From positions 1 to 44,825 of IMG/VR virus record IMGVR_UViG_3300045450_000021: a stretch of DNA of 44,825 nt. One strand, written 5' to 3'. The first letter of the stretch is position 1. Every line of letters begins with the position of its first letter. A model generated the notes under the pieces. It ran no database searches. It was given only the letters and a program-made list of their open reading frames with translations, and had not been told where the DNA came from. Origin of the DNA: a virus. Positions 3,889 through 44,825 of the stretch are shown piece after piece. The position numbers and the translations under genes were made by a program.

Positions 3889-3928
3889 AAAACCCCAAGT
3901 GGAAGGCCAGTGACATGGCGGGCATCCT
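3889..3928 (+). promoter_or_regulatory. Late box copy 1: AAAACCCCAAGTGG-N20-CATCCT, predicted late promoter for the W-J-I-fibre operon
   Basis: Exact 14-mer plus a fixed 20-nt spacer plus an NANNCT hexamer. 23-nt identity with copy 2 (GCAAAACCCCAAGTGGAAGGCCA). Confidence 0.6.
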
Positions 3929-10088: not shown

Positions 10089-10128
10089 AAAACCCCAAGT
10101 GGAAGGCCAAACACGCACCTGCAAGACT
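10089..10128 (+). promoter_or_regulatory. Late box copy 2: AAAACCCCAAGTGG-N20-AAGACT, predicted late promoter for the sheath-to-D operon
   Basis: Exact 14-mer immediately after a terminator and 65 nt upstream of the sheath ATG. Same spacing and hexamer class as the other copies. Confidence 0.65.
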
Positions 10129-17146: not shown

Positions 17147-17223
17147 TGGCGACCCCGGCAGGAATCGAACCTGCGACATCCGACTTAGAAGGTCGGCGCT
17201 CTATCCGGCTGAGCTACGGGGCC
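17147..17223 (-). tRNA. tRNA-Arg (anticodon TCT), full length with encoded CCA
   Basis: The reverse complement folds as a cloverleaf: 7-bp acceptor stem (one G-T pair), GCTC/GAGC D stem, CCGAC/GTCGG anticodon stem with loop CTTCTAA, GCAGG/CCTGC T stem with loop TTCGATT. Confidence 0.9.
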
Positions 17224-17526: not shown

Positions 17527-18768
17527 GTGCTCACCGATAAGCGCATCCAGGCCACCATCCGCACGGCCACGGCAGAGGTCACATTGAAGGACAGCGACGG
17601 CACCCGTGGCGCGGGCATGCTGGCGCTCAGGGTTCGCCCCGGAACCGGCGGCACCCGAGCCACCTGGATGGCCACCTGGAAACGGGACGGAAAGCGAGGC
17701 AGCAAGGCGCTGGGCAACTACCCTGAGTTGTCCCTTGCCGAGGCGCGCGAGAAGTTCGCGGATGAGGTCCGACCGCTAATCCAGGCGGGCAAGGCCCCCA
17801 GCGAGGTGGCGTCGGGCGAGAAGGGCGCGACGGTCGAAGCCCTGGCCCTGGCTTACATCGAGAGCCTGCGGACGAATGGTAAGACCAAGGCCGATGAGTA
17901 CCAGCGCACCCTGCTGACGGGTAAGTACCCTGTCTGTGGTCTCCTGGGGCTGAACCGGCTGGCGAAGGACATCGAGCCCGACGACGTGGCGCGGGCGCTC
18001 AAGATGACCGACCTACGGGGAGCCAGGCGCCAGGCCGACGTGGAGCGCACCATCTTGGTTGCCATGTTCAACTATGGAATCCGGTCCACGCACGACTACC
18101 GAGCCAAGTCCCGCCGTGATTGGGGCATCAAGGTGAACCCCGCCGCTGTCATTCCGCGCGATACCGGTGCCGTGGTGGCCAGAGAGCGCAACCTGTCAGC
18201 CGAAGAGCTGAAGGCGGTCTGGGACAACGCGCCCGACCAGACTGGCGACGTGCTGCGCCTGATCATCGCCTGTGGCCAGCGGGTGTTCGAAACCATCCAG
18301 GCGGATGGCAAGGACGTGGACCTGGAGTCAGCGCTGTGGACCATGCCGGCAGCCAAAACGAAGATGAAGGCGCGCCCCCATTACGTGCCGCTGCCGCCAC
18401 AGGCTGTGGAGATTTTCCGGCGCCTGAAGGAACTGCACGGGGATGGACCTCTGTTCCCGGCGCGAGCTGGCGCCAAGGGTGTGCGCATAGGCATCCCCAG
18501 TGTCAGCCGTGGCGCCTCGCGCATGTCGTGCTGCGATCCCTTCCAGCCTCGCGACCTGCGCCGCAGCTGGAAGTCCAGGGCTGGTGACGCTGGCGTGGAC
18601 CGGTTCACGCGCGATCTGATCCAGCAGCACGCGCGGAACGACACCGGATCGAAGTTTTACGATCACGCCGACTATCTTCCGCAGATGCGCGAGGCCATGC
18701 AGAAGTGGAGCGAGTGGCTTGCGAAAGCCCTGGCCGGAAAGCAGTTGCAGGAGTTGGAGGCGGCTTGA
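17527..18768 (+). CDS. int: Tyrosine integrase, P4-type (DUF4102-like N-terminus)
   Basis: GTG start with an AGGAGA RBS. N-terminal LKDSDGTRGAGMLALRVRPGTGG...W.ATWKRDGKR. C-terminal DLRRSWKSRA...QQHARND...YDH catalytic-region pattern. Confidence 0.85.
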   Translation: MLTDKRIQATIRTATAEVTLKDSDGTRGAGMLALRVRPGTGGTRATWMATWKRDGKRGSKALGNYPELSLAEAREKFADEVRPLIQAGKAPSEVASGEKGATVEALALAYIESLRTNGKTKADEYQRTLLTGKYPVCGLLGLNRLAKDIEPDDVARALKMTDLRGARRQADVERTILVAMFNYGIRSTHDYRAKSRRDWGIKVNPAAVIPRDTGAVVARERNLSAEELKAVWDNAPDQTGDVLRLIIACGQRVFETIQADGKDVDLESALWTMPAAKTKMKARPHYVPLPPQAVEIFRRLKELHGDGPLFPARAGAKGVRIGIPSVSRGASRMSCCDPFQPRDLRRSWKSRAGDAGVDRFTRDLIQQHARNDTGSKFYDHADYLPQMREAMQKWSEWLAKALAGKQLQELEAA

Positions 18769-21798: not shown

Positions 21799-22926
21799 TC
21801 AGTTATTGTCCAGCAGGTGCTGGTTCTTGTTGGCGTGCCATCCCGGCATGCTGATCTTCTGGATTTTGTCGCCGTAACCAGGCCAGTTGTCGTTGGCGAC
21901 GCACTCGGCATAGGTGCGCAGATCGGCCTGGTATTGAGCGCGACCCAGCATCAGGGTTTCAGCGTCCAGGGTGTAGACACCCACGGCATACGGCGGCTTT
22001 TTCTCCACCGCGATGAAGACGAACTGGCGCGGCTTGCGGCCGGTGGCCTGGTTGACGCCATCCAGGTAGTAGGCGGCCTGCACGTCATAGCGGTAGTTCG
22101 CAATCGACTTGCTGAAGCCTTCGGGGCTGGCGTCTTCGGTGGTCTTCAGGTCCACCAGCAGGTCATCTTCCCGCCAGTAGTCAGGGCGGCAGCGGCACAG
22201 GGAGCCGGTTACCGCATCGCTCCAGTAGACGGACAGCTCTGCCTTGCCTGGCAGCTTGGACAGCAGCGCGCTGGCAGCCGGATGGGCCATGACCGCTTCA
22301 CGCATGCCGTGGAGCATGTCCCACTGTTCCTGGGTCAGCACAGAGCGGGTGCCGTTGTTGGCCAGCCACTCTGCCTGGACATCGGACCACAGCGTCACCT
22401 CCACGCCATTGGCGCGCAGGATGGCTGCCAGATCGTGGCGGCTGCCGCTGGTGGGGAGTAGGCCGTGGCGGGCCTGGTTCAGACCGTCCAGGATGGCCTT
22501 CAGGTCTGCACCCTTCATGGCGTCGAGCTGCGTAACGTCCAGCTCTTGATGTTCTGGCTTCGCTTCGCGGATGCGTTCCACCAGCTCCGCCTTGCTGCCA
22601 CTGGTGCTGAGCTTCGGCAGGCGGCCTTCGTTCAGCTTGGCGACCATGGCCACCAGCTCTTCGCGGTCATCGATAGCGGCCGGAACATCCTGCCGGCGAA
22701 GACCCAGGCAGTATTGCTTGGTAAACTCGGCCGGTTCCAGGATCAGCGCATGGGCAGCGGTGCCGATGGCCTGGGCGGGTGTCGGCTGGCGATTGTCGTT
22801 CGCGGCAGTCACTACCGCATGGTAGTGCATCGGGCTGCGGTGGATCAGGTCAAGACCTGACTTCGAAATACCCGGACCACCGTGGTATTCGTCGTTGGGG
22901 ATGTTGTCGTAAACGCCTGGTTTCAT
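21799..22926 (-). CDS. PD-(D/E)XK (Cas4/RecE-like) exonuclease with two SAP-like inserts
   Basis: N-terminus GVYDNIPNDEYHGGPGISKSGLDLIHRSPMHYH, and ...DLKTTEDASPEGFSKSI. Inserts KAELVERIREA and RHDLAAILRANG. Confidence 0.65.
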   Translation of the reverse strand: MKPGVYDNIPNDEYHGGPGISKSGLDLIHRSPMHYHAVVTAANDNRQPTPAQAIGTAAHALILEPAEFTKQYCLGLRRQDVPAAIDDREELVAMVAKLNEGRLPKLSTSGSKAELVERIREAKPEHQELDVTQLDAMKGADLKAILDGLNQARHGLLPTSGSRHDLAAILRANGVEVTLWSDVQAEWLANNGTRSVLTQEQWDMLHGMREAVMAHPAASALLSKLPGKAELSVYWSDAVTGSLCRCRPDYWREDDLLVDLKTTEDASPEGFSKSIANYRYDVQAAYYLDGVNQATGRKPRQFVFIAVEKKPPYAVGVYTLDAETLMLGRAQYQADLRTYAECVANDNWPGYGDKIQKISMPGWHANKNQHLLDNN

Positions 22927-22987
22927 GATGGGTAGCCCATTCTTGATTGGTCAGTGAGCCACGGTGATTGGCCGTGAACTGTGGCTA

Positions 22988-23017
22988 ATCTTAGTGAATG
23001 TATTCCTATCCTGTCAA
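22988..23017 (-). promoter_or_regulatory. Predicted leftward early promoter (TTGACA-18-TAAGAT) with a GAATGTATTC dyad in the spacer
   Basis: The minus strand reads TTGACAggataggaatacattcacTAAGAT. The dyad lies at 22996-23005. An AGCCAC...GTGGCT hairpin (22957-22986) lies in the leader. Confidence 0.45.
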
Positions 23018-23228
23018 CAATGTTTCGCGACACCCGTGATGGGCGGATTTCACTTATGTTGGAGTCCACGGCTTGGCGCTTGAGGTGTGCCGCTCACGCT
23101 GCCGTGATCAAGGGGTAACGCTTGTCAGGATTCGGAGTCAAGCGTAAGCAACTCTGATCCACTGGACTGGATCGCGTGAAGCAAATACAATCCAATACAT
23201 CGACAGTGACGCAGCGTGAAGCGCCGTT

Positions 23229-24641
23229 ATGCCAGTGATACTACGCGACTACCAATCAGATCAGATGCAGCGGGTTCGACGCGCCGCAGTGACACACCGC
23301 CGGGTCCTTATCCAGGCGCCCACCGGGGCAGGCAAAACAGCCCTGGCAACCTTCATCGCTGGGGAGACATCGGCCAGGGGGTCTGGCGTGTGGTTCATTT
23401 GCCACCGTGCCGAGCTGGTGGATGGCACCAGCAAGACATTTTCGAAGTTCGGGATTCCTCACGGCTTCATCGCCGCCGGCATGCCCATGAACCTGCGCGC
23501 ACTGGTCCAGGTGTGCAGCATCGACACCCTCAAGAACCGCCTGCAAACCCTTGTACCACCGAAGGTTGCAATCGTTGATGAGTGCCATCACGCGAGCGCC
23601 GCAGGGTGGGCTCTGGTCATCCAATGGCTGGTGTCCAATGGCGCCTGGGTTTTCGGTCTTTCCGCAACCCCGCAACGGTTGGATGGGCAACCACTAAGCG
23701 ACCACTTCGACACCATCGTTCTGGGTCCGACAGTGTCCTGGCTGATGGAGAATGGGCACTTATCCACATACCGGCTTTTCGCTCCGCACATACCCGACAT
23801 GAAGGGAGTGCGCAGGGCCATGGGTGACTTCGCGAAGGGCGAGGCCGCCGAGAAGATGGATAAGCCCAAGCTTACGGGAGACATCGTATCCCACTGGAAG
23901 CAGCGCGCTTCTGGCCTCAGGACCATCGGGTTTGGCGTCAACGTCGCCCACAGCCAGCACCTGGCTGATGCGTTCTGTTCCTCGGGGGTACAGGCTGCCC
24001 ATTTGGACGGCAGCACAGAAAAAGGGCTCCGGCGCCGGATCATTGCGGACTTCGCCACCGGACGCATTCAGGTCCTGTTCAACACGGCGCTTTTTGACGA
24101 GGGCTTCGACCTGTCGGCGGTGGCCGGCACCGATGTCACCATTGATGCGCTGATCGATGCCGGGCCGACCCAGTCGCTGACCAAGGCCATGCAGCGCTGG
24201 GGGCGCACCCTGCGGCCGGCGCCTGGGAAAACCTCCATGATCCTGGACCATGCGGGGAACTGCATGCGCCACGGATTCCCAGACGATGAGCGGGAATGGA
24301 GCCTGGACGGCAAAGAGAAGGGTAAGGCCGCCAACGACAACGCCCCGCCACCGCCGATCATCTGCGAAGGCTGCTTCAACGCCATCAAGCGGCCGGCACC
24401 AGCGGACTGCCCGCACTGCGGCAAGCACCTGCGCAAGGAAGCCAAGCCCATTGAGGTGGCGGCTGGCGACCTGAAGGAAATGGGCGACGACGACAAGGCC
24501 CGCATCCGTCGAGACCGAGCCAAGGAACAGGCAGAGGCTAAGACCCTGGAACAGCTGGTGGCCCTGGGTCAGCGCCGTGGCTATTCGTCCCCGATGGGCT
24601 GGGCGAAAAAGGTTTTTGCAGGCAGAGGCGGCAGGCGATAG
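23229..24641 (+). CDS. Superfamily-2 DEAD/DEAH-box helicase with a C-terminal zinc ribbon
   Basis: LRDYQ, APTGAGKT (Walker A) and DECHH motifs, a helicase-C region, and CEGCFN...CPHCGK. Confidence 0.85.
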   Translation: MPVILRDYQSDQMQRVRRAAVTHRRVLIQAPTGAGKTALATFIAGETSARGSGVWFICHRAELVDGTSKTFSKFGIPHGFIAAGMPMNLRALVQVCSIDTLKNRLQTLVPPKVAIVDECHHASAAGWALVIQWLVSNGAWVFGLSATPQRLDGQPLSDHFDTIVLGPTVSWLMENGHLSTYRLFAPHIPDMKGVRRAMGDFAKGEAAEKMDKPKLTGDIVSHWKQRASGLRTIGFGVNVAHSQHLADAFCSSGVQAAHLDGSTEKGLRRRIIADFATGRIQVLFNTALFDEGFDLSAVAGTDVTIDALIDAGPTQSLTKAMQRWGRTLRPAPGKTSMILDHAGNCMRHGFPDDEREWSLDGKEKGKAANDNAPPPPIICEGCFNAIKRPAPADCPHCGKHLRKEAKPIEVAAGDLKEMGDDDKARIRRDRAKEQAEAKTLEQLVALGQRRGYSSPMGWAKKVFAGRGGRR

Positions 24642-24720: not shown

Positions 24721-25317
24721 ATGACCAGACTCACAAAGGAAATGCGTAGCCAGATCATCGCCAATGCAGTAGAGAAGGCGGGTCTGAACGCCAGGATTGA
24801 AAGGAACACCAGCGAACGCAAGCAGTGGGCAGAAGATGTCCGGCTTGACAGCGTCGGCGGACCAGAGGAAGACAGTCGCCTGCTTGAGCTTCAGAATCAG
24901 ATGGAATCCCTTATCGAATCTGTTCCTAAGGGAATTCGAGGTGGCGTCACGCATTACAAAATTTTCGACACGAACTCGAATATCAACCTGAACCTGGCGG
25001 GGGCAAACCTTCGAATTCGCGTCGATAGTCAAAAGCCTTCCCGGCTGTCTCACGTTATCGCAGCAGACAATCCTCTGGTTCAGCGTTTCTATGACCTTGA
25101 GGATGATACCAGGCTTACCGAGTCCGAGAGAGAACGCATCACCGTCAACGTCCGCGCCGTCATCGAGCAGGCCAACACCATCAAGCAGCTGCTGGAGATG
25201 TGGCCCGAGTGCGTCGAGCTGATGCCAGCAGTGGAAGAACGCAAGGCGACCCTGCCAACCGTGAAGGTGGCCGACCTGAACGCACTGGTGGGGCTGCCCA
25301 CCGACGCGATGAAATGA
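24721..25317 (+). CDS. Hypothetical protein (198 aa)
   Basis: AAGAGG RBS. Lower-GC 5' half. No motif I can name with confidence. Confidence 0.6.
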   Translation: MTRLTKEMRSQIIANAVEKAGLNARIERNTSERKQWAEDVRLDSVGGPEEDSRLLELQNQMESLIESVPKGIRGGVTHYKIFDTNSNINLNLAGANLRIRVDSQKPSRLSHVIAADNPLVQRFYDLEDDTRLTESERERITVNVRAVIEQANTIKQLLEMWPECVELMPAVEERKATLPTVKVADLNALVGLPTDAMK

Positions 25318-25544
25318 AAACCCACTGCCGCTGCCGCAGCTGCCAGGCTCGCAAGGTGCTCAAGCAGCACCCTGACGAGTACCTGAGACAGCCGAAATGC
25401 TGGGGTTGCGGCGCCAGAGACTGGAGGCAGGACAGGTGGATGCAGAACCGCAAGCAGACCACCTGCCACGCCGATTGCTACCACTTCCCGCACCGGATGG
25501 GTTCCGCCGAGTGCAAATTCACCAAGACAGGCGAGTACAAATGA
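25314..25544 (+). CDS. Cys/His-rich zinc-binding protein (76 aa)
   Basis: MKTHCRCRSCQ...CWGCGA...CHADCYHFPH...C. ATGA-type coupling on both sides. Confidence 0.55.
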   Translation: MKTHCRCRSCQARKVLKQHPDEYLRQPKCWGCGARDWRQDRWMQNRKQTTCHADCYHFPHRMGSAECKFTKTGEYK

Positions 25545-26473
25545 AGAGCTTCAAGGCGATGATCAAGGATGGTGAAATCAAGCGCGCCGACGCGATGAAG
25601 GCGCGCCTGGAAGACCTGCACGAAGAACCCGGCTTCAACCTGCGGGCCGAGGGCGAGGACCTGGAGCAGTCCATCAGCGACTTGGCCGAGTTCATCGCGG
25701 CCGGTGGCCAGATCCCAGCGCTGGAAGTGCGCCCGCGTGCTGAGGGTGGCCTGTGGCTGGTGGACGGCCATCGCAGGTCCCGCGCCCTGCGCAGGCTGGA
25801 TGCTGAAGGCCGCCTGCCTCGCGTCGATGGTGAAGCCTGGGTGGCCATCGTGGCCTTCACCGGGAACGATGCCGACCGCGTCGCCCGCGTCATCACCAGC
25901 CAGGAAGGTCGCAAGCTGTCGCCCCTGGAGCTGGCCGAGGGCTACAAGCGCCTGGCCGCGTTCGGCTGGACCACCGAGCAAATCGGTAAGGCGGTGGGCA
26001 AGACCCGACAGCACGTTGACCAGATGATGGTCCTGGCTGGCGCCAACACCGACGTGCAGCAGATGGTTAAGGCCGGCACCGTGTCGGCCGCTACCGCCGT
26101 CGAGCTGGTCCGCGAGCATGGCGAGGATGCCGGCAAGGTGCTGGCCACCGAGCTGGAGAAGGCCAAGGCGCAGGGAAAGGCGAAGGTAACCGGTGGGACA
26201 ATGAAAGGCCCCAGCGTTCCGCGCAGCCTGCTGGATGACCTGCACGCCGAGTCCACCAAGCTGCACCAGGCGCTGAGCAGCGACGATCACGCCATGCTGG
26301 AAGCCTTCCACCGTGGCAGCATAGACGGCGGCACCATCGCCGTGCCGGTGGAGCGCCTGCTGCACCTCCACCTGGTCCTGGAGGAAGCCCAGCGCGTACT
26401 GGATGAGAAGAACCAGCGAGCCCAGGAGAAGGCGAACAAGGCCAAGCAGCAGGAACTGGAGGTGCAGGCATGA
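25541..26473 (+). CDS. ParB/Srx-like N-terminal-domain protein
   Basis: IPALEVRPRAEGGLWLVDGHRRSRALRRL is a ParB-box-like motif. HTH-like region ELAEGYKRLAAFGWTTEQIGKAVGKTRQHV. Confidence 0.75.
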   Translation: MKSFKAMIKDGEIKRADAMKARLEDLHEEPGFNLRAEGEDLEQSISDLAEFIAAGGQIPALEVRPRAEGGLWLVDGHRRSRALRRLDAEGRLPRVDGEAWVAIVAFTGNDADRVARVITSQEGRKLSPLELAEGYKRLAAFGWTTEQIGKAVGKTRQHVDQMMVLAGANTDVQQMVKAGTVSAATAVELVREHGEDAGKVLATELEKAKAQGKAKVTGGTMKGPSVPRSLLDDLHAESTKLHQALSSDDHAMLEAFHRGSIDGGTIAVPVERLLHLHLVLEEAQRVLDEKNQRAQEKANKAKQQELEVQA

Positions 26474-27591
26474 TCCGCCTCCAGCTTCATCTGGGCAACT
26501 GCCTGGACATCCTAAGGACCATGCCCGAATGCTCGGTCGATTCCATCGTAACAGACCCGCCCTACGGCCTTGCTTTCATGGGCAAGCGCTGGGACTACGA
26601 CGTGCCGAGCACCGAGATCTGGGCTGAGTGCCTGCGCGTGCTCAAGCCTGGCGGCCACCTGCTGGCGTTCGCCGGCACTCGCAGCCAGCACCGCATGGCC
26701 GTCCGCATCGAGGATGCCGGGTTCGAAATCCGCGACATGATCGCCTGGGTCTACGGGTCGGGATTCCCGAAGTCGCTGGACGTGAGCAAGGCGATCGACA
26801 AGGCGGCGGGAAACCAGCGCGGCACAACGCCAGATATTCGTAATGGCCCTAACACTAAACCGACGAAGGGGGACAAATACAGCGGCGGTTATGAAGGCCA
26901 ATCGAACACTGACGCAGGTCCAGTTTCCGAAGATGCGGCCCGATGGCAAGGGTGGGGCACCGCCCTCAAGCCCGCCCTGGAGCCAATCACCGTAGCCCGC
27001 AAGCCGCTAGCCGGCACTGTCGCGGCAAACGTGCTGGCACATGGGGCTGGGGCGCTGAACATCGACGGATGCCGGGTGCCTGGCGAGAGCACAATGCGGA
27101 CCACTGGCAAGGTGCTTTCTTCAAAAGGCGCGGCAGGAGGCGCGTGGAGCGCTCAATCTCATGAGCTGAGCGCCCGTGATGAGGTCATGGCCACTGGTAG
27201 CGAACTGGGCCGCTGGCCCGCCAACCTGATCCACGATGGCAGCGACGAGGTTGTGGCGCTGTTCCCGACAGAGAAGAGGCAGAGCGCCGCCCGGTTTTTC
27301 TACGCCCCCAAGGCAAGTAAGCGCGACCGTGGTGAGGGCAACACGCACCCTACCGTCAAGCCTACCGATCTGATGGCCTACCTGTGCCGCCTGGTGACCC
27401 CACCCGGCGGGATCGTGCTGGACCCGTTCATGGGCTCCGGCTCTACTGGCAAAGCGGCCATGCGCGAAGGCTTCCGCTTTATTGGCTGCGAGCTGGATGC
27501 TGGTTATTTCGAGATTGCAAAGGCTCGCATCAAGGCCGCACAACCCGCCGCAGACAACGACAACGGCGAACCATTGGAGCAAACAGCATGA
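26470..27591 (+). CDS. DNA methyltransferase (N6_N4 family, beta class; probably m6A)
   Basis: DPPY motif (SIVTDPPYG) near the N-terminus. AdoMet motif LDPFMGSGSTGKAA near the C-terminus. Confidence 0.85.
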   Translation: MIRLQLHLGNCLDILRTMPECSVDSIVTDPPYGLAFMGKRWDYDVPSTEIWAECLRVLKPGGHLLAFAGTRSQHRMAVRIEDAGFEIRDMIAWVYGSGFPKSLDVSKAIDKAAGNQRGTTPDIRNGPNTKPTKGDKYSGGYEGQSNTDAGPVSEDAARWQGWGTALKPALEPITVARKPLAGTVAANVLAHGAGALNIDGCRVPGESTMRTTGKVLSSKGAAGGAWSAQSHELSARDEVMATGSELGRWPANLIHDGSDEVVALFPTEKRQSAARFFYAPKASKRDRGEGNTHPTVKPTDLMAYLCRLVTPPGGIVLDPFMGSGSTGKAAMREGFRFIGCELDAGYFEIAKARIKAAQPAADNDNGEPLEQTA

Positions 27592-30289: not shown

Positions 30290-30571
30290 ATGACCAAGCT
30301 ATTCGCCACAGGCGATGCGCGCTATCGCATCGAACGCCTGATCAAGACCCTCCGCATTGCCCGCGAAATCCTGGCCCTGTCTGAGAGCCAGACCAACCTT
30401 CTAATCCGTGACCTTACCGACTCCAGGGGTGAGCTGACCATCAACTGGTCTGCCGAGCCTACTTCACGCCAGTGCGATGCGTTCGCAGCTGCGTGGGAGC
30501 TGGTGGGCGAGGACGGCAAATCCGTGAAGAACATCTGCGCCGAAGTCGGACGGCTGGAGTGGGAAGTATGA
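30290..30571 (+). CDS. Hypothetical protein (93 aa)
   Basis: Its stop overlaps the primase ATG. Confidence 0.6.
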   Translation: MTKLFATGDARYRIERLIKTLRIAREILALSESQTNLLIRDLTDSRGELTINWSAEPTSRQCDAFAAAWELVGEDGKSVKNICAEVGRLEWEV

Positions 30572-32826
30572 GCGCCCTCCAGAGCTACCGCGACCTGACC
30601 GAAACCGAGATTGAACAGGCCCTTACCTACATCGACGCCGATTGCACCCGCGAAGAGTGGGTGAAGATCGGCATGGCCATCAAGTCCGAGCTTGGCAACG
30701 GCGGTTTCGACATATGGGACGCCTGGTCCAAGTCCGCAGCCGGCCGCTACAGCGCCAAGGCATCGCGCGACACCTGGAAGTCCATCAAGCCCACTGGCGG
30801 TGTCAACATCGCCACTCTGATCTATGAGGCCAAGCAGTTTGGCTTCAGCCTGGATGAATCCCGCCGCGAGCCCATCGACCAGGCGCAAATTGAAGCGCGC
30901 CGCGCCAAGCGCCGGCAGGAAGAGGAATCCGCCCAGGCCGAAATCAACCGTAAGCGAGCCGATGCCGCCGAGCAGGCCAACATCCTGTGGCTGGCAGCTC
31001 AGCCGGTGGAGGGTGAAGGTCACCCGTACCTCCAGCGCAAGGGTGTGCAGTCGTTCGGCCTGAAGGTCGGCAAGTGGACCAAGGGCCAGGAAGCCCTGCT
31101 GATCCCCATGCTGAACGTGGATGGCCACCTGGTCAGCCTCCAAGCCATTTTCACCAACGTGAACCCTGAGCTGGGGCGCGACAAGGACTACCTGTATGGC
31201 GGCCAGCGCCGTGGCAGCTTCCACCTGATCGGCGGCAAGCCGGCCGGCAGCCAGCCCACCGTGGTCGTATGCGAAGGCTATGCGACAGGTGCCACCATCC
31301 ACCAGGCCACAGGACACTGCGTCGCCGTGGCGTTCGATGCCGGCAACCTGGTTTCGGTTGCCAAGGCCATGCGCGAGCTGTTCGGCAATGCCACCATCCT
31401 GATTGCCGCCGACAACGACAACTGGACGGACGGCAACCCCGGTATCCACCACGCGCGCCAGGCCGCAACTGTGGCAGGCGCCATCGTCGCCGTGCCGACA
31501 TTCGAAAGCCTTGACGGAAAGCCAACCGACTTCAACGACCTGCATGCGCGCCAGGGTGTCGAGGCGGTTCGCGAGCAGCTGAACGCCGTACTGCCCAAGG
31601 CGGACAATGACAACCATCTGCCGCTGGACAGCAACGTCAACCCGTTCATGTTCCCGCACCTGTCCGAGCGCCAACAGCCGCTGAACACCTGGGAGAACCT
31701 GGAGTGGCTGCTTGATCAGTACGGCATCACTGCGCGTTACAACGTCACCAGCAAGGATGTGATTGTCAAAGTGCCTGGGCGAGACTGGGGCCAGGACGCC
31801 GCTGCCAACTGCGCGCTGGCAGAGGTCAACAGCCTGTGCGCCCGCAATCGCATGCCGAAGGGCGATACGGACAGCTACCTGAAGCTGATCGGAATGAACA
31901 ACCGCTTCAACCCAGTTTATGACTTCATCACTTCCAAGCCCTGGGATGGTGTCAGCCGCTTGAAAGCCATTTGCGACACCCTTGGCACCGAAGACGGTTA
32001 TGATCGCGACATGCTGGAGCGCCTGGTGCGTCGCTGGCTAGTTTCCTGCGTTGCTGCCGCTCTGCTGCCAACTGGTTTCTGGTCCAAGGGCGTGCTGGTG
32101 CTCCAGGGTCCGCAGTCGCTGGGCAAGACGGCCTGGATCAAGTCCCTGCTGCCCGCATCACAGCGCGAGCTGGTGAAGATCGGGGCCAACATCGACCCCA
32201 CCAACAAGGACACCATCAGCAGCGCCATCGGCCACTGGATCGTGGAGCTGGGTGAGCTGGATGGTACTTTTCGCAAGGCCGACATAGCCAAGCTGAAGGC
32301 ATTCATCAGCAGCGACGTGGACATGCTGCGCCGGCCGTATGATCGGCTGGAGTCGAAGTATCAGCGGCGCACCGTGTTTTTTGCGAGCGTGAACCCGAAG
32401 CACTTCCTGGCCGACGACACCGGCAACGTGCGCTGGTGGACTATCCCGGTCACTTCCGTGAACTACGCCCACGACATCGACACCCAGCAGCTTTGGGCGG
32501 AGATGGCCGTCCTGTTCCGTGATGGCGAGCGCTGGTGGCTGGAGCGCGAAGAGGAAGCAGCCCTGGAGCTGGTCAACAATGAGCACGAGGCCATAGACCC
32601 GCTGGAAGAAATCTTGCAACAGCGCTTCAACTGGGTGCAACGCGGCCATGGCAGCGAGATGACCGCTACCGACGTTCTTTTGGCTGTTGGCTTCGACCGC
32701 CCAACCAAGACCCAGGCCACCGATTGCAGCAAGCTGCTTCAGAAGATGACCGGAGACAAGCCAAGGAAGTCAGGTAGTCGGCGCCTGTTCAGGATGCCGC
32801 CCATAGTCGAGACGCGACCGCTCTGA
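30568..32826 (+). CDS. Primase / replicative protein (PriCT-2-like N-terminus, Toprim, VirE-like P-loop domain)
   Basis: EEWVKIGMAIKSELGNGGFDIWDAWS. Toprim VVVCEGYATGATI...IAADNDNW. P-loop LQGPQSLGKT. ATG at 30568 preferred. Confidence 0.8.
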   Translation: MSALQSYRDLTETEIEQALTYIDADCTREEWVKIGMAIKSELGNGGFDIWDAWSKSAAGRYSAKASRDTWKSIKPTGGVNIATLIYEAKQFGFSLDESRREPIDQAQIEARRAKRRQEEESAQAEINRKRADAAEQANILWLAAQPVEGEGHPYLQRKGVQSFGLKVGKWTKGQEALLIPMLNVDGHLVSLQAIFTNVNPELGRDKDYLYGGQRRGSFHLIGGKPAGSQPTVVVCEGYATGATIHQATGHCVAVAFDAGNLVSVAKAMRELFGNATILIAADNDNWTDGNPGIHHARQAATVAGAIVAVPTFESLDGKPTDFNDLHARQGVEAVREQLNAVLPKADNDNHLPLDSNVNPFMFPHLSERQQPLNTWENLEWLLDQYGITARYNVTSKDVIVKVPGRDWGQDAAANCALAEVNSLCARNRMPKGDTDSYLKLIGMNNRFNPVYDFITSKPWDGVSRLKAICDTLGTEDGYDRDMLERLVRRWLVSCVAAALLPTGFWSKGVLVLQGPQSLGKTAWIKSLLPASQRELVKIGANIDPTNKDTISSAIGHWIVELGELDGTFRKADIAKLKAFISSDVDMLRRPYDRLESKYQRRTVFFASVNPKHFLADDTGNVRWWTIPVTSVNYAHDIDTQQLWAEMAVLFRDGERWWLEREEEAALELVNNEHEAIDPLEEILQQRFNWVQRGHGSEMTATDVLLAVGFDRPTKTQATDCSKLLQKMTGDKPRKSGSRRLFRMPPIVETRPL

Positions 32827-32947: not shown

Positions 32948-33187
32948 ATGTGCCAGAGCTATGCCGCATGGCTTCGCGGGGAAATCGACAAGTGCGCAAG
33001 CCCATGGGTGATGAACGCCGTCATCATCCCGCACGCCGAGGACGTGGCTGCGATCTACCGGCGAGAGCTGGGCACCATCAGGAACAACGTTGTCCGCGTC
33101 CACCTGATGAACAGCCTGGCCGAATTCGAACAGATGATTGAATCAGCAAGAAACCACTTCAACAAACCCAGAGGTGCCAATGTATGA
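32948..33187 (+). CDS. Hypothetical protein (79 aa)
   Basis: AAGGA RBS. This is the first ATG downstream of the predicted -10. Confidence 0.55.
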   Translation: MCQSYAAWLRGEIDKCASPWVMNAVIIPHAEDVAAIYRRELGTIRNNVVRVHLMNSLAEFEQMIESARNHFNKPRGANV

Positions 33188-34047
33188 ACACAGAAAAACA
33201 GATTGACGATTTGCACGAAGCGCTGGCGAGCACCGAAAGTGAGTTGCGGGATGAACGCGAAGCCCTGACGCGGGTGGAGGCGGAGCGTGACTCGGCGAGG
33301 CTATCCGTGGACCTCTGGAAGGAGCAGTACCAATCAGTTGTAGACTGCGGCAATGAGATCATGGCCGAACGCGACGCCGCCCAGGCGCATCTGGCGGAGG
33401 CTGTGGGGCTTCTGCGCAGCGCCGAACACCAGCTGGTCAGCTTCCACCGAGAACACGAGTCGCAGTGGTGTGGCTATCTGGATGATGCGCTAGGAGTCAT
33501 CAAGCACATCATCGGCAGCCACGCCCAGACCGAGCAGCAGGAAGCCCATGGGGCGCAGGCCGAGCCTACGAACTTCGGCCAGGAACTGGAAGCTTTCGAG
33601 AAGTGGCGGCACACGCAAGCAGACTCCCTGCGCCGCTGCGGGTATCCAGACGCGGCTGACAAGTTCATCCAGCTGGGTTCTGTCCAGTGGGCTGGGTGGC
33701 AAGCCCGCGCCGCCCTCGCCACCCAGCCCGCCGCTTGTGAGCCGGTTGCACCGAAAGAAGTCGCCGAAGTGACCGTCACCCTTCGAGATGGCATGAAGTC
33801 GTTCGCATTCAATGAGTACAGCGAAGCCTACAATCTGCCGGAAGGCTTGCACCACCTCTACACCTCCGCCCCGCCTGCCGCCGCGCATGGGGATGACCGA
33901 GTATCGGGACTACGGTGGGTTATCGCCCGGTGCGCCGTGATGCAGAAACAGGGTTTCGAGCGAGTGCTGCTGAAAGCGTTCAAGCGCGACCTTGAGGTGG
34001 CCCTAGATGCCATGCGCGCCCAGGCCGGCGAAGGGGGTGAGGTGTGA
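33184..34047 (+). CDS. Hypothetical protein with an N-terminal coiled coil (287 aa)
   Basis: Coupled ORF. No recognisable catalytic motif. Confidence 0.65.
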   Translation: MNTEKQIDDLHEALASTESELRDEREALTRVEAERDSARLSVDLWKEQYQSVVDCGNEIMAERDAAQAHLAEAVGLLRSAEHQLVSFHREHESQWCGYLDDALGVIKHIIGSHAQTEQQEAHGAQAEPTNFGQELEAFEKWRHTQADSLRRCGYPDAADKFIQLGSVQWAGWQARAALATQPAACEPVAPKEVAEVTVTLRDGMKSFAFNEYSEAYNLPEGLHHLYTSAPPAAAHGDDRVSGLRWVIARCAVMQKQGFERVLLKAFKRDLEVALDAMRAQAGEGGEV

Positions 34048-34175
34048 GTAAGCGCGTCTGCTACAGGTGCTTGCACGTTAGCGAGCCTGCCCGTCACTTC
34101 TCCAGCAGTGCCAAGATTTGGTATCTCGGCTGCATCAACTGCAAGTGCGGCGTCTTTTTTGGGGGTGACGCATGA
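34044..34175 (+). CDS. Possible small zinc-ribbon protein (43 aa), GTG start
   Basis: CYRC...CINCKC. Its stop overlaps the next ATG. Confidence 0.35.
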   Translation: MSKRVCYRCLHVSEPARHFSSSAKIWYLGCINCKCGVFFGGDA

Positions 34176-34582
34176 TCCTGCTGACCTGCCCCCGCTGCCA
34201 CAAGGCTGACGAAGAATGCCAGTGCTGGCCGCTGGTGAGCATCGCCCAGATCGAAGCCCGCTGGGGCATGCCTTTCTCCCAGCTACTGGAGGACCTGGCC
34301 GAACAGGACTTCTCCATGCGCCAGGCGGCCATAGCGCTGGGCTGCAACAGGGAGGCGCTGCGGGTCTACGTTGCCAGCATGGAACGCAGCCCATGGGCGC
34401 CCAGGGAGGTGGCAGCGGTGTGGTTACGCCAGACCGGCGAGACGATAACCGCAGCAGCCCGCCGGCTGGCCGAGACGCACACCATTAGCCAGGCTGCCAG
34501 GGTGCTGGGGTATTACAACTGCATGGGGCTGCGCAAAGCCCTGAAGGTGCGCGGGGTCACGGTCCAGTTCCAGCGCGCATGA
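34172..34582 (+). CDS. Putative DNA-binding protein (zinc ribbon plus two HTH-like segments)
   Basis: CPRCHKADEECQC, FSMRQAAIALGCNREALRVYV and HTISQAARVLGYYNCMGLRKAL. Confidence 0.55.
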   Translation: MILLTCPRCHKADEECQCWPLVSIAQIEARWGMPFSQLLEDLAEQDFSMRQAAIALGCNREALRVYVASMERSPWAPREVAAVWLRQTGETITAAARRLAETHTISQAARVLGYYNCMGLRKALKVRGVTVQFQRA

Positions 34583-34608
34583 CCGCCAACCGCTGATGAT
34601 CCACACTA

Positions 34609-34636
34609 ACGGCTCCCATTCAGGAGCCGTTTTCTT
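34609..34636 (+). terminator. Rho-independent terminator
   Basis: ACGGCTCC-N6-GGAGCCGT followed by TTTCTT. Confidence 0.65.
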
Positions 34637-34861
34637 ATGTCCAGTCCAGACTACCCACCAAAGCCTACAGAATTCGCCAGGATCAACGATCAGTGCAAGG
34701 CCGTGGGGCAGCACTACCAGCAGGGAGAAATGGCAGCAGGCGAAGCCCTGGCCACGCTGGAGCTATTGCGCGCTGACGCCGTGAGACTTCCAGCAGAGGA
34801 TGACCGCTCGCTGCTGCTTGGTCGCATCTACGCCACCAGCCTGACGATACGCAGGGGATGA
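34637..34861 (+). CDS. Hypothetical protein (74 aa)
   Basis: The ORF starts directly after the terminator. Its only SD-like sequence (AGGAG) lies inside the hairpin. Confidence 0.4.
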   Translation: MSSPDYPPKPTEFARINDQCKAVGQHYQQGEMAAGEALATLELLRADAVRLPAEDDRSLLLGRIYATSLTIRRG

Positions 34862-34877
34862 CCCCTTGGGACCACCG

Positions 34878-34903
34878 AACCCGGCCATCGAGCCGGGTTT
34901 TTC
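34878..34903 (+). terminator. Rho-independent terminator
   Basis: AACCCGGC-N6-GCCGGGTT followed by TTTC. Confidence 0.75.
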
Positions 34904-34953
34904 ATGCCGGCAGATTGCCACCAGCGGCTAGCGGCGATGCGAAGCCCCTGCGA

Positions 34954-35183
34954 CTTGTCCCACTTGGCCCCAATTTGGGACAAGGAAATTGACCCCTGGT
35001 CCCACACTAAACCATTGATCTAGATAGCCTTTTTACCCTTTGGGACTACTAGGGACAACGTATTAAAAGAAATAGGGGGGCGTAGTAGCAATACGCCATA
35101 ACGCCTATAGGCTTTATAGAAACAGTGGTCCCTCTTGTCCCTTGGTCCCAAATCTGGTCCCAAGTGCTGGCCCCTTGTCCCTA
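34954..35183. repeat. Iteron/operator-like array: about 12 copies here, plus one at 34866, of T(G/T)GnCCC(A/T) or its complement GGGACnA, flanking an AT-rich core
   Basis: + orientation at 34955, 34964, 34997, 35126, 35135, 35143, 35155, 35168 and 35175. Inverted at 34866, 34975, 35040 and 35051. AT-rich segment 35059-35124 with hairpin 35079-35097. Confidence 0.8.
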
Positions 35184-35237
35184 GCGCATATACACTATCC
35201 CCCAAGTTGACGAATACATCCGATTACCGGGGATGAC

Positions 35238-35693
35238 ATGAAATTACCGCGAAGCGTGCAGGAGATAGCCGACGTGATCGGGACTGACCAGGCGTTATAC
35301 CTGGTGGGGCAGATGCCAAGGTTCAAGAACACCACCAAGGGCGGCTATCAGTGCGTGATGTACGTGCCCACCAAGTCCAGGCTGACCCAGCGGCATGAGC
35401 TGGTGCGCATCCTTGGCCTGATCGACGCTGGAAGGCTGTGCGAAGCATTCGGCGGGGAAATCATCCAGCCGGCCAACTGCGCCGAGATATGCCGGGCTCA
35501 CCGGGACCGCAGCATCATCCTGCTGGCAGATGAGGGCATGCCACCGGCACAGCTCGCAGAGCTTACCTGCGTGTCCGAGCGGCACGTTCGCAAGCTGTTA
35601 CGGGAAAAACCCCAAGTGGTTCACATCCACGCGAATGACAACACTCCCGCGCGTGAGCAGCGCCAACCACTACCTGACGCCATTGCGGTCTAA
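35238..35693 (+). CDS. Mor/C-family late transcription activator
   Basis: ...CEAFGGEIIQPANC...HRDRSIILLADEGMPPAQLAELTCVSERHVRKLLRE matches the Mu Mor/C pattern (FGG..h.hP, R..I, C-terminal HTH). Confidence 0.65.
   Translation: MKLPRSVQEIADVIGTDQALYLVGQMPRFKNTTKGGYQCVMYVPTKSRLTQRHELVRILGLIDAGRLCEAFGGEIIQPANCAEICRAHRDRSIILLADEGMPPAQLAELTCVSERHVRKLLREKPQVVHIHANDNTPAREQRQPLPDAIAV
35606..35645 (+). promoter_or_regulatory. Late box copy 3: AAAACCCCAAGTGG-N20-AACACT, predicted late promoter for the lysis/packaging operon, embedded in the 3' end of the activator gene
   Basis: Exact 14-mer with the fixed spacer and hexamer class. The next gene starts at 35701. Confidence 0.6.
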
Positions 35694-39825: not shown

Positions 39826-41883
39826 GTGAAGCCGACCGTCGAGCAGTTCAGCAACCTGCGGGGCGTGGTGTCCGCCCTGCATCGCGCCATGCAGAACCTG
39901 GTTCCACCGCCGCCGCTGATGCCTTCCGAGTGGGCAGAGGCGAACGTTCTCATCCCGGTTGGCAACGCCAAGCCTGGCCCGATCCGCTTCGACAACGCCC
40001 CGTACCAGCGGGGCATGATCGACGCGATTGCAGAGCCTGGCGTGCGCCGCGTCTCGATGATGACTGGCGCCCAGCTGGGCAAGACCACCGTTCAGCAGTG
40101 CTGGACGGGGTACTTCATCGCCCATGAACCGCGCTCGCAAATCATGGTTCAGCCCACCCAGGGTGACGTGCAGACGTACCTGGAGACGAAGCTGCGGCCG
40201 ATGCTGGACGCAAACCCCTCCATCAGCAGCAAGATGGCCAAGCAGCGCGGTCGGGAGGGCGTGAATAACAGCCGGATCATCTCCTACATCGGGGGCTGGC
40301 TGATGTTCAGCTGGGCGGGCTCGCCCAAGACCCTGCGCGGCCGTTCTGCGCCGGTCACCCATGCCGACGAAATAGACGGTTACGAAGCCTCGCCCGAAGG
40401 CGACCCTGGCGAGCTGCTTGCCCAGCGCTCGGCATCCTTCGGGGACGATGCGCTGCGCACCGAGTCCAGCACACCCACCATCAAGGGTGAAAGCCGGATC
40501 GAAACGGCCTTCCAGCTGGGCGACCAGCGCCGCTACATGGTCCCTTGCCCCGACTGCGGACACCACCAGCACATGCGCTGGGAGCAGGTCACCTGGAGCG
40601 GGCGGCAGTCCACCAGCGTGGATGACTTCGAAAAGGATTTGCCCGGCATCGAGGCAGAAACCCACGAACCGGACACCGCGCTTTACGCCTGCGAGGAATG
40701 CGGCAGCCTGTGGGATGACGGCCAGCGGGTGGCTGCGATCCGCGAGGCCGAGCAGAACGGCGGCGGCTGGAAGGCAACCAGGGCGTTCCGAGGGCACGCC
40801 AGTTTCCACGCCCCGGAGATGCTGAGCACATTCCGGCGCCTGCGCGACATCGTGAAGTCCTACCTGGGCAAGATCGCCCTGGAGGACATGCAGTCGTTTG
40901 TGAACGTCAGCCTGGCGCTGACCTATGACCAGAAGGGCGAACAGGCCGACCCTACCGGTTTGATGAAGACGGCCATCGACTACCCTGCCGAGGTTCCGGC
41001 CGGCGGCCTCTACATCACCGCCGGGGTGGACATGCAGATGGACCGCCTGGAATGCGAAGTGGTGGCTTGGGGCGACGGTGAGCGCAGCTGGTCGCTGGGC
41101 TATCACGTCCTATGGGGTGACCCTGAGCATCCAGACGTGTGGGCGGACCTGGAAGACCTGCTGGCGTCCACCTACCAGCACGAAAGCGGCGCCGTTCTGC
41201 CGATCATGGCTGCCTGCCTGGATACCGGTGGCACCAACGGCATGACCCAGGCCGCCTATGAGTTCGCTAAGGGTAGGACTGGCCGCCGGCTGTTCGCCAT
41301 CAAGGGCATCTCCGGCTGGGACCGCCCTATCGTGGAGAAGCCGGAGCGCAAGCAGAGCGGCAAGGACGCGCGTAAGGTGGACCTGTTCAAGGTCGGCGTT
41401 GACCAGGCCAAGCTGACGGTGATGCGGCGCCTGTCGCGAACCATCGACCATGACCCGGAGCAGCCCGACCAGGGCGGCCATTGCTACTTCCCCAAGGACA
41501 GGGATGGCGAGTGGTATAAGCAGCTCACGGCAGAGAAGCTGGTGACCCGCTACATCAAGGGCCAGCCTGTGCGCGAGTGGCACAAGCCCGACCGCGCCCG
41601 AAACGAAGCCCTTGACTGCCGGGTGTACGCCCTGGCGGCGCTGAAGATCATGGCGCCATCCTTCAAGCGCCTGGCCGAACGCCTTGGCCTGGTCCAGCAG
41701 CGAGGGTTCAAGCCGCGCAAGGTGGAAGAGCAGCCTGTAAACGACAACGTTCCGGCGCCGCAAAGGGTTCAGGAAAAACCCCAAGTGGAAGAAAAGCCAC
41801 CCATTCCAGAGACTAAGCCCAAAATCAAGCGCTCAAAAGCTGCCGCAGCAGGTCGCGGCGGGGGTTGGGCGTCCAGATGGTGA
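39826..41883 (+). CDS. Terminase large subunit (lambda GpA-like)
   Basis: PYQRGMIDAI...SMMTGAQLGKTT plus the Zn-ribbon-like CPDCGHHQHM...CEECGS, as in GpA. GTG start 1 nt after the previous stop. Confidence 0.9.
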   Translation: MKPTVEQFSNLRGVVSALHRAMQNLVPPPPLMPSEWAEANVLIPVGNAKPGPIRFDNAPYQRGMIDAIAEPGVRRVSMMTGAQLGKTTVQQCWTGYFIAHEPRSQIMVQPTQGDVQTYLETKLRPMLDANPSISSKMAKQRGREGVNNSRIISYIGGWLMFSWAGSPKTLRGRSAPVTHADEIDGYEASPEGDPGELLAQRSASFGDDALRTESSTPTIKGESRIETAFQLGDQRRYMVPCPDCGHHQHMRWEQVTWSGRQSTSVDDFEKDLPGIEAETHEPDTALYACEECGSLWDDGQRVAAIREAEQNGGGWKATRAFRGHASFHAPEMLSTFRRLRDIVKSYLGKIALEDMQSFVNVSLALTYDQKGEQADPTGLMKTAIDYPAEVPAGGLYITAGVDMQMDRLECEVVAWGDGERSWSLGYHVLWGDPEHPDVWADLEDLLASTYQHESGAVLPIMAACLDTGGTNGMTQAAYEFAKGRTGRRLFAIKGISGWDRPIVEKPERKQSGKDARKVDLFKVGVDQAKLTVMRRLSRTIDHDPEQPDQGGHCYFPKDRDGEWYKQLTAEKLVTRYIKGQPVREWHKPDRARNEALDCRVYALAALKIMAPSFKRLAERLGLVQQRGFKPRKVEEQPVNDNVPAPQRVQEKPQVEEKPPIPETKPKIKRSKAAAAGRGGGWASRW
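41775..41814 (+). promoter_or_regulatory. Late box copy 4: AAAACCCCAAGTGG-N20-GAGACT, predicted late promoter for the head operon, embedded in the TerL C-terminal tail
   Basis: Exact 14-mer with the fixed spacer and hexamer class. The next gene starts at 41890. Confidence 0.55.
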
Positions 41884-43991: not shown

Positions 43992-44825
43992 CCTGCTGGC
44001 GCTGATCATCGGCGCCACACTTCTGCGCGACGCCAGCGGCACTGCCGCTCTGCCTGACTTCAACGCGAAGGGTGACCTTCAGCGCAAGATGGAAGTCAGC
44101 AACGTCGATGCGGAAAAACGCACTGTCGAGCTGGCGTTTTCCTCGGAAATCGAGGTTCAGCGCTGGTTCGGTATGGAAATCCTGGACCACGATACCGGCA
44201 GCGTTCGGCTGGATCGACTTCGCGACGGCGGCGCCCTGCTGGTCGATCACGACTGGTCGGACCAAGTCGGTATCGTGGAATCCGTGACCATTGGCGCTGA
44301 TCGGCGGGGCCGAGCAGTGGTGCGCTTCGGAAAAGGCGCGCGGGCCAGTGAGATTTTCCAGGATGTGGTGGACGGTATTCGCCGGCATGTTTCGGTTGGC
44401 TATCGAGTCCTGAACGCGAAGCTCCAGGAAACGCGCGATGACGGGGACGTTTTCCGCATCACCGACTGGGAGCCTTTCGAAATCTCATTTGTGAGTGTTC
44501 CAGCTGACCATTCGGTCGGAGTTGGGCGCAGTGCGGAAAAACCCCAAGTGGATAACACCATGGGACGGCCCGACACTGTTCGCACCGTGGGCACTCCCCC
44601 CGCAAATCAAAATACGACTGAGGTCAAGAAGAGTATGGAAAAAATCCTGCGGGATGCTTCCGGTAACCTGGTCCGCGCTCTGGTGGACGATTCCGGCAAC
44701 ATCACTCAAGTTCTGGAAGTGCTGGAGCGCGCTGGCGACGATGTTCGCGCAGCTGAGCGCCGCGCTACCGAAGCCGCCCAGGCCCGTGTTGCCGCCATCT
44801 CTCAGATGGGCGAGCAGTACAACTG
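43978..44825 (+). CDS. Prohead protease (HK97/S78 family) fused in frame to the capsid protein. The ORF runs off the window end and continues at nt 3.
   Basis: No stop codon from 43978 to the window end. LLVDHDWSDQVGIVESV and EISFVSVPADHSVG resemble the S78 catalytic His/Ser regions. Start is either 43978 or the ATG at 44089. Confidence 0.8.
   Translation, partial: MHKHSLLALIIGATLLRDASGTAALPDFNAKGDLQRKMEVSNVDAEKRTVELAFSSEIEVQRWFGMEILDHDTGSVRLDRLRDGGALLVDHDWSDQVGIVESVTIGADRRGRAVVRFGKGARASEIFQDVVDGIRRHVSVGYRVLNAKLQETRDDGDVFRITDWEPFEISFVSVPADHSVGVGRSAEKPQVDNTMGRPDTVRTVGTPPANQNTTEVKKSMEKILRDASGNLVRALVDDSGNITQVLEVLERAGDDVRAAERRATEAAQARVAAISQMGEQYN
44538..44577 (+). promoter_or_regulatory. Late box copy 5: AAAACCCCAAGTGG-N20-GACACT, predicted internal promoter in the protease-capsid linker
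   Basis: Exact 14-mer with the fixed spacer and hexamer class. An in-frame ATG at 44636 with GAGG/AAGAAGAG upstream follows. Confidence 0.5.
44699..44825. repeat. Terminal duplication, copy 2 (identical to 1-127)
   Basis: Exact match to the window start. Confidence 0.95.

Follow-up and report, generated by a model that had tools for sequence, protein, structure and literature searches.

What is the function of the densely repeated, non-coding gap of 376 bp at positions 34862-35237 of the phage sequence studied here (IMG/VR record IMGVR_UViG_3300045450_000021; the whole stretch of 44,825 nt is referred to as the window)? The gap lies between the early/replication block and the late block, whose first gene encodes a Mor-like late transcriptional activator. 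An earlier note on this DNA had offered a replication origin, a multi-site operator of the activator gene and a centromere-like loading site as possible roles. We consider it probable, at roughly 0.75, that the gap is the replication origin of the phage, that this origin is of the iteron type found in the pathogenicity islands of Staphylococcus aureus (SaPIs), in phage-inducible chromosomal islands (PICIs) and in phage P4 with its alpha protein, and that it is read by the phage's own fused primase-helicase. The origin role gains support from the layout of the gap, which is conserved in related phages and shared with SaPI and PICI origins, from covariation between the repeats and a wing segment of the primase-helicase and from the homology of this protein with SaPI Rep. 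It is because of the SaPI Rep-homologous helicase and the same origin layout that an origin of this particular type is put forward.

The repeat motif T(G/T)GnCCC(A/T) (TKGNCCCW) was scored on both strands of the whole window, where it occurs 31 times versus 32.1 times by chance, that is without any overall excess. Twelve of the 31 matches fall in the gap, within 34867-35182; were the matches spread evenly, 0.26 would be expected there in the gap (binomial P 1.5e-17). In Markov simulations (n=200) no 376-bp stretch held more than six matches, and when the composition of the gap itself was simulated, 0.48 matches were obtained on average and five at most. The repeats are clustered far beyond chance, and there is no second cluster of the motif in the window. 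A thirteenth copy, TAGTCCCA on the minus strand at 35040-35047, carries one mismatch, and all 13 copies have the repeat core G(T/C)CCC. The earlier estimate of about 13 copies in the gap is therefore accurate, with 12 exact copies and one with a single mismatch.

The copies are arranged in an ordered manner (Table 1). Two inward-pointing minus-strand repeats at 35040 and 35051, a core of 58% A+T and six plus-strand repeats at 35126-35182 follow each other, which amounts to at least two iterons per side in opposed orientation, the right-hand array being oriented opposite to the inner-left pair. The six same-orientation copies that had been listed between 35126 and 35175, with spacings of 7-13 bp, proved exact, and the mixed-orientation cluster described to their left is likewise present, with copies at 34955(+), 34965(+), 34976(-), 34997(+), 35040(-) and 35051(-). 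Its outer part holds a head-to-head repeat pair, GGCCCCAATTTGGGAC, and this outer-left sub-layout recurs in the related contig L019 and in several other relatives. The core between the opposed groups contains sequence blocks common to close relatives, namely TTAAAAGAAATA, GGGGCGTAGTAGCA, CATAACG and TTTATAG-AAC. The description of this region as an AT-rich segment with a small hairpin holds only in part: its A+T content is raised, with 58% as compared to 38.5% for the window, but the 40-bp stretch with the highest A+T content (62%) is located at 35002-35041 and not in the core. The hairpin, made up of GGCGTA/TACGCC and the palindrome GCCTATAGGC, is not taken as a functional element because its folding is marginal (z = -2.4, with 7 of 200 shuffles folding equally well) and because conservation does not extend to phage Persinger.

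Comparison was made with 21 related elements from Pseudomonas, Burkholderia, Ralstonia, Achromobacter, Acinetobacter and enterobacteria, including metagenomic contigs and one Cupriavidus genome contig. The phage of the window is related to the Pseudomonas phages Persinger and PPpW-3; farther relatives are Burkholderia phage Mica, Achromobacter phage Mano, Ralstonia phage phiRSP and Acinetobacter phage Alexa as well as, among enterobacterial phages, the Jilinvirus members ECO1230-10, ep3, Arya, PT1, KA2-1 and HeidiAbel. In all 20 related phage elements in which the gap before the Mor gene was read, an array of short repeats is present ahead of this gene; the exception among the 21 is a satellite-like island. 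The gap measures 190-760 bp in the relatives, and in the Cupriavidus contig (L021) a short opposite-strand gene is inserted between array and Mor gene. Where the layout is best resolved (the window, L019, ECO1230-10, Persinger, L020, Arya, KA2-1 and L022 among others), the order starts with a terminator and continues with repeats of mixed orientation, an inward-pointing pair, the AT-rich core and repeats that point the opposite way.

While the layout is kept, the repeat word is not. GTCCC is found in the window, PPpW-3, phiRSP and ECO1230-10, GTCACC in Arya, KA2-1, ep3, HeidiAbel, PT1 and Mica, TGGTCA(C/T) in Persinger, a GTGCAC-like word in Mano and Alexa, and ATAACCCC, with 12 AACCCC cores, in contig L026. 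An alignment of six close relatives reveals that at least five homologous repeat positions have changed together from GTCCC to GTCA(T/C). For instance, TGGTCCCTCTTGTCCCTTGGTCCC of the window aligns in register with TGGTCATGTTGGTCATGGTGGTCAC of Persinger; at the positions homologous to the inner-left pair Persinger reads GTGACTAC GTGACTAC, and at those homologous to the right-hand array TGGTCAT TGGTCAT TGGTCAC. Such concerted change is what would be expected for sites that are read by a co-evolving protein.

In order to find this reader, each conserved DNA-binding protein was aligned and residues were sought that separate the repeat classes. Such residues are present in a short C-terminal segment, termed the wing, of the primase-helicase (RKSGSRRLF in the window, encoded at approximately 32764-32793). 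Wings of the form RKSGS(R/K/N)R-LF go with GTCCC, (R/K)(K/R)(T/S)K(N/A)GR-FF with GTCACC, RRTA(S/T)(K/S)R-LF with TGGTCA(C/T) and KRSNG(R/K)(S/T)-LL with the GTGCAC-like word. All eight elements with the wing [RK]KSGSxR[LY]F have 4-11 GTCCC and none or one GTCAC per gap, and all 14 elements with other wings contain at most one GTCCC per gap (Fisher P 3e-6 for SGS wing versus GTCCC, uncorrected for phylogeny). The primase of ECO1230-10 is 83% identical to those of ep3, PT1 and HeidiAbel, which have GTCACC repeats, and yet it combines a GTCCC-type wing with GTCCC repeats. SGS wings also occur on protein bodies that are only 52% identical, and the nearest neighbors with other wings are 79-85% identical. 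Because of this switch in ECO1230-10 and the occurrence of SGS wings on such divergent bodies, the signal linking wing and word cuts across phylogeny.

The association has predictive value. From 120 primase-helicase homologs, collected with the full-length protein as query, contigs were picked by the wing alone and predictions were made before the DNA was read. All five were confirmed on the new contigs: GTCCC repeats were found with the wings RKSGSKRLF (L019) and RKSGSRRLF (L021), GTCC(C) repeats with KKSGSHRYF (L028, 52% identical) and KKSGSSRYF (L029), and Persinger-type TGGTCA repeats with RRTATSRLF (L020). Wings that had not been encountered before accompany GTCAC variants in L022, L023 and L024, and the wing RKSNGSMVF of L026 accompanies its different word, ATAACCCC. 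The covariation suggests that the C-terminal wing of the primase-helicase sets which repeat is recognized.

The domain composition of the primase-helicase is that of a PriRep-type protein. PriCT_2, Toprim_3/4 and a VapE-like superfamily 3 (SF3) helicase are combined in one open reading frame (ORF; Pfam VapE-like_dom, E 2e-50), and the helicase region (query residues 435-668) matches the SaPI1 Rep1-DNA structure PDB 7PDS with an E value of 5.4e-23 (phmmer against PDB). The Toprim region (residues 142-413) is 29% identical to residues 120-378 of P4 alpha (BLASTP, E 3e-19); outside this region, i.e. in the helicase and C-terminal domains, BLASTP gave no significant alignment with alpha. In an AlphaFold2 model of the last 115 amino acids (mean predicted local distance difference test score 79, approximately 88-91 over residues 41-110), which consists of helices and a beta hairpin, the covarying segment is placed on the beta hairpin that follows a helix-helix unit. 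On the basis of this model, the C-terminal domain is predicted to be a winged helix with the hairpin as its wing. A sequence search of PDB with the C-terminal 112 amino acids gave no match, 1KA8 included.

Reps of SaPIs are self-loading SF3 helicases with a C-terminal winged helix that recognizes penta- or hexanucleotide iterons, and their origins consist of 6-12 iterons with an AT-rich center and at least two iterons per side in opposite directions (PMC9371898). The same origin layout is found in PICIs of Gram-negative bacteria, where a pri-rep-ori segment drives plasmid replication (PMC6092414). The phage of the window agrees with these elements (SaPI1 Rep1, SaPI5 PriRep5, EcCICFT073) in its homologous helicase and, as in PriRep5, in the fusion of primase and helicase, furthermore in a C-terminal domain that appears from covariation to set repeat specificity, in a 5-6-nt iteron core present in about 13 copies, and in two opposed repeat sets around an AT-rich center, with at least two repeats per side. 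Unlike these satellites, it is a complete 45-kb myophage, and its array has an additional outer cluster of mixed orientation.

In P4 alpha, a single polypeptide serves as primase, as SF3-type helicase and, through a winged helix at its C-terminus, as origin binder (PMC2777425). The window protein resembles it in its Toprim region and, given the winged helix predicted for its C-terminal domain, in this combination of activities, and both systems have octamer repeats in both orientations. The annotated GenBank record of P4 lists 16 TGTTCACC-like type 1 repeats in ori and crr, and these are similar to T(G/T)GTCACC, the word found in the Arya/Mica class; a literature search for TGTTCACC yielded primer sequences only. 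On the other hand, the helicase and C-terminal domains lack detectable sequence similarity to alpha, and P4 needs the two clusters ori and crr, 4.5 kb apart, whereas the window has a single cluster. With lambda O and ori-lambda and with plasmids of the RepA/TrfA type the gap shares initiator repeats beside an unwinding region rich in AT and, in some relatives, a possible site for integration host factor (IHF); in those systems, however, a separate initiator recruits the host DnaB, whereas the initiator proposed here is itself helicase and primase and the gap has no DnaA boxes. In SV40 large T antigen and papillomavirus E1 an SF3 helicase is the origin binder, opposed pentanucleotide sites flank the melting region and two rings are loaded. 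Their DNA-binding domain differs in fold and position, and the sequence relation is limited to the SF3 ATPase class.

With these systems as guides, we propose that the primase-helicase would recognize the 7-8-bp repeats with the core GTCCC through its C-terminal winged-helix domain, the specificity being set by the beta-hairpin wing. Initiator bound to the opposed repeat groups on both sides of the core at 35059-35125 would melt the latter, the initiators would self-load to form two SF3 helicase rings travelling away from each other, and DNA synthesis would be started by the primase domain joined to them. That the protein physically binds the repeats, melts the core and is loaded as two rings, and that replication starts at this very site, are steps that we infer.

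Several points weigh against this assignment. The covariation identifies the reader of the repeats and not the place at which replication starts. The array is situated some 2.0-2.1 kb downstream of the primase-helicase stop codon (32826), beyond the ORFs 33184-34047, 34172-34582 and 34637-34861, and abuts the promoter of the late activator, whereas SaPI and PICI origins lie directly 3' of rep; the separation of origin and initiator gene holds in all relatives. The core is only moderately AT-rich, and DnaA boxes are absent from every gap scanned. A Foldseek search of PDB with the C-terminal model had a best E value of 0.2; the top matches are mostly small winged-helix proteins, and neither 1KA8, the origin-binding domain of P4 alpha, nor SaPI Rep (7PDS/7OLA) is among the 50 matches listed. 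A profile search of PDB with the same domain returned ankyrin-repeat noise only. Finally, no origin has been described for this phage group in the searchable literature. Part of these points would fit an array that binds the primase-helicase while replication starts elsewhere, be it a crr-like auxiliary site, a copy-control (handcuffing) site or a site regulating transcription: P4 requires two separate clusters, the array is 2 kb away from the initiator gene, and covariation names the binder alone. The window lacks a second cluster of the motif, and the two-sided, opposed arrangement around an AT-rich core is the very layout of SaPI and PICI origins, so that we judge a mere binding site to be unlikely.

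Other readers of the array have even less to recommend them. An operator that acts on the late activator gene and is bound by Mor itself, by the helix-turn-helix (HTH) protein encoded at 34172-34582 or by the small early repressor would account for an array that lies immediately upstream of Mor in all relatives and for the fact that the repeats at 35168 and 35175 cover the -35 position relative to the -10-like TACACT. However, the recognition helices of Mor (LDVSERTVKRHCTDKP) and of the small early repressor are identical in ECO1230-10, with GTCCC repeats, and in ep3, PT1 and HeidiAbel, with GTCACC repeats, which means that neither protein covaries with the word; the 34172-34582 protein has no homolog in the 21 relatives; and the overlap of repeats and promoter is not conserved, because in Persinger-type phages the last repeat is some 40-60 bp away from the -10 box. 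The operator, for which no candidate binder is left, is thus very unlikely as the main role of the array, although the Mor promoter may be affected secondarily when the initiator binds. The centromere-like (parS/sopC-like) loading site that the earlier note had considered fares worse still. The ParB-like gene does exist at 25541-26473 as had been stated, and the half-site TGGTCCCA/TGGGACC does resemble the arm of sopC. The sopC-type inverted repeat TGGGACCnnGGTCCCA, however, is absent, the two matches with three mismatches being direct-repeat pairs where 3.2 are expected by chance; ParB is missing from the stretches of Arya, ECO1230-10, L022 and L024, all of which have arrays, so that it is dispensable for the array; its HTH hardly differs from the GTCCC to the TGGTCA class and does not covary with the repeats; no ParA was found among the approximately 25 window proteins scanned, which represent part of the ORFs; and a tyrosine integrase is present rather than signs of a plasmid lifestyle. 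Furthermore, the ParB-like gene stands between genes for Nmad5 (nucleotide modification associated domain 5) and a DNA methyltransferase (24721-27591), a neighborhood that suggests a function of the protein in DNA modification rather than in partition. We regard a centromere as highly improbable. Least credible of all is a cosB- or pac-like packaging site for the Nu1-type small terminase. Lambda-type cosB likewise consists of several short repeats plus an IHF site, and the small terminase possesses an N-terminal HTH. This HTH, PPT[IV]DxWV[RK], is near-invariant over five repeat classes including ATAACCCC, and the small-terminase gene begins only 2.5 kb downstream of the array, beyond the Mor and lysis genes.

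The preferred reading of the gap as an origin leaves the remaining signals to be placed (Table 1). To the left, the primase-helicase gene is followed by three small ORFs and then by the terminator-like hairpin, with which the early/replication operon ends; the records of Mica and Mano carry a terminator annotation at the homologous position. None of the three ORFs (33184-34047, 34172-34582 with an HTH, and 34637-34861) has a homolog in any of the 21 relatives, and the region 33184-34861 is therefore regarded as a variable accessory slot; the genes that relatives carry in the same slot (pyrophosphatase, HicAB, TerB, methyltransferases) are unrelated. To the right, the Mor-like gene is followed by lysis genes and then by the small terminase gene. 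Mor homologs are encoded in the stretches of all 21 relatives with the exception of FoX1, whose stretch stops before the late region.

Table 1. Features of the gap and of the genes and sites related to it.
Feature	Position	Strand	Remarks
Fused primase-helicase (PriRep type), proposed origin-binding initiator	30568-32826	+	Pfam and PHROG matches
Isolated repeat TGGTCCCA	34867-34874	-	Follows the stop codon of ORF 34637-34861 and precedes the terminator; possibly part of the origin
Intrinsic-terminator-like hairpin AACCCGGC/GCCGGGTT plus T run	34878-34902	+	Hairpin 34878-34899, 8/8 complementary, 6-nt loop
Outer-left iteron cluster	34955-35004	mixed	34955(+) TTGTCCCA, 34965(+) TGGCCCCA, 34976(-) TTGTCCCA, 34997(+) TGGTCCCA
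Weak IHF-consensus-like site GATCAATGGTTTA	35008-35020	-	First W of WATCARNNNNTTR not matched
Inner-left iteron pair, pointing to the core	35040-35058	-	TAGTCCCA at 35040, TTGTCCCT at 35051
Relatively AT-rich core, proposed melting region	35059-35125		67 bp, 58% A+T versus 38.5% for the window
Right-hand array, six same-orientation iterons	35126-35182	+	35126, 35135, 35143, 35155, 35168, 35175; spacing 7-13 bp
Putative Mor promoter/leader element	35191-35211	+	-10-like TACACT (35191-35196), then conserved CCCCCAAGTTGAC; not an iteron
Mor-like late transcriptional activator	35238-35693	+	phrog_836, E 2.8e-25; first gene of the late block (lysis, then packaging)
Late box copies	3889-3902, 10089-10102, 35606-35619, 41775-41788, 44538-44551	+	AAAACCCCAAGTGG
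Strict IHF-consensus matches in relatives	L009 10006, L008 10056, L015 5080, L014 5208, L017 6352, L011 6240		WATCARNNNNTTR

Between the last repeat and the Mor gene lies an element that is kept in relatives of every repeat class, at homologous positions in L001-L023, with the consensus TACAAT (TACACT in the window, TAGAAT in L019) followed by CCC-N-CA(A/C)(G/T)T(T/A)GAC. The stretch 35199-35209, CCCCCAAGTTG, which had been listed along with the repeats, is part of this element and not an iteron. As a sigma-70 scan of the gap gave no canonical promoter, the assignment of 35191-35211 as the promoter of the Mor gene is a putative one, made by inference from its conservation and its -10-like box. 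With respect to the latter, the repeats at 35168 and 35175 occupy the expected position of a -35 box.

Strict matches to the IHF consensus occur in the array-bearing gap of six of 19 relatives as compared to 0.6 expected in total, and in ECO1230-10 and Arya the match sits between the outer-left and the inner-left repeats; we treat an IHF site in these gaps as a hint only. A scan of the gap against Rfam gave no RNA family, and a tRNA scan found no tRNA within it. The cumulative GC skew of the window has its minimum near 15-16 kb; it follows gene orientation and is for this reason uninformative about the origin.

The late box AAAACCCCAAGTGG is present in five copies in the window, all of them on the plus strand. 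Its 8-nt core CCCAAGTG occurs six times versus two expected, five times as part of the longer box. At least three boxes are located just ahead of late-gene starts, and one is contained in the Mor gene, at its 3' end, with the holin gene following. The box at 3889 is only about 33 bp ahead of the ATG and thereby too near for an upstream site of the classic Mu Mor/C type. The part CCCCAAGTTG of the Mor leader has 9 of 11 positions in common with the late box, and the Mor gene itself might be under late-box control. A sequence link between array and late box that had been drawn earlier does not hold up: with only 8 nt in common, the match of CCCAAGTG at 35159 to AAAACCCCAAGTGG is probably coincidence.

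A tRNA-Arg(TCT) gene (17147-17223, minus strand) adjoins the tyrosine integrase gene (17527-18768, plus strand), and the integrase catalytic domain scores 26.5, just under the Pfam cut-off of 27.1. No ORF for a cI-like repressor fits into the 300-bp divergent gap at 22926-23229, where one is present in Arya and L019. Possibly, the phage derives from a temperate lineage and is itself virulent.

A PICI/P4-like island with integrase and AlpA genes (L025) resides on the Pseudomonas fluorescens chromosome OZ346953.1 (8044-16865). Its primase-helicase is 63% identical to that of the window, convergent AACC(T/A)CTGA repeats surround a central region (12846-13114) downstream of the primase-helicase gene, and it encodes a Mor homolog of 45% identity (16491-16865). 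The island could be a satellite that exploits the late-gene switch of this phage family.

The array is always found ahead of the Mor gene, and in the window its last two repeats occupy the -35 position. For these reasons we raise, as a tentative and rather doubtful suggestion, that origin and late-activator promoter are kept adjacent by functional coupling and that late expression is licensed by the start of replication. Binding of the initiator, or melting or firing of the origin, could then turn on the Mor gene or release its transcription. Dependence on replication is known for middle transcription of phage Mu and for late transcription of phage T4, and the coupling, if true, would be a hard-wired version of it.

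Origins of this kind are well known; one in this group of phages would be new. A proposed origin and a proposed initiator are hereby assigned to small myophages, the Iiscvirinae and relatives, among them Persinger, PPpW-3, Mica and the BASEL phage HeidiAbel, a poorly characterized group whose biology has been called 'enigmatic' (PMC11990801). A layout that was said to be exclusive to PICIs is also present in complete phages, which bears on the source of satellite replicons. The correspondence between wing and repeat (KSGS for GTCCC, K(T/S)KNG for GTCACC, RTA for TGGTCA and KSNGS for ATAACCCC) is testable in two E. coli phages and could serve to predict the compatibility of phage and satellite origins.

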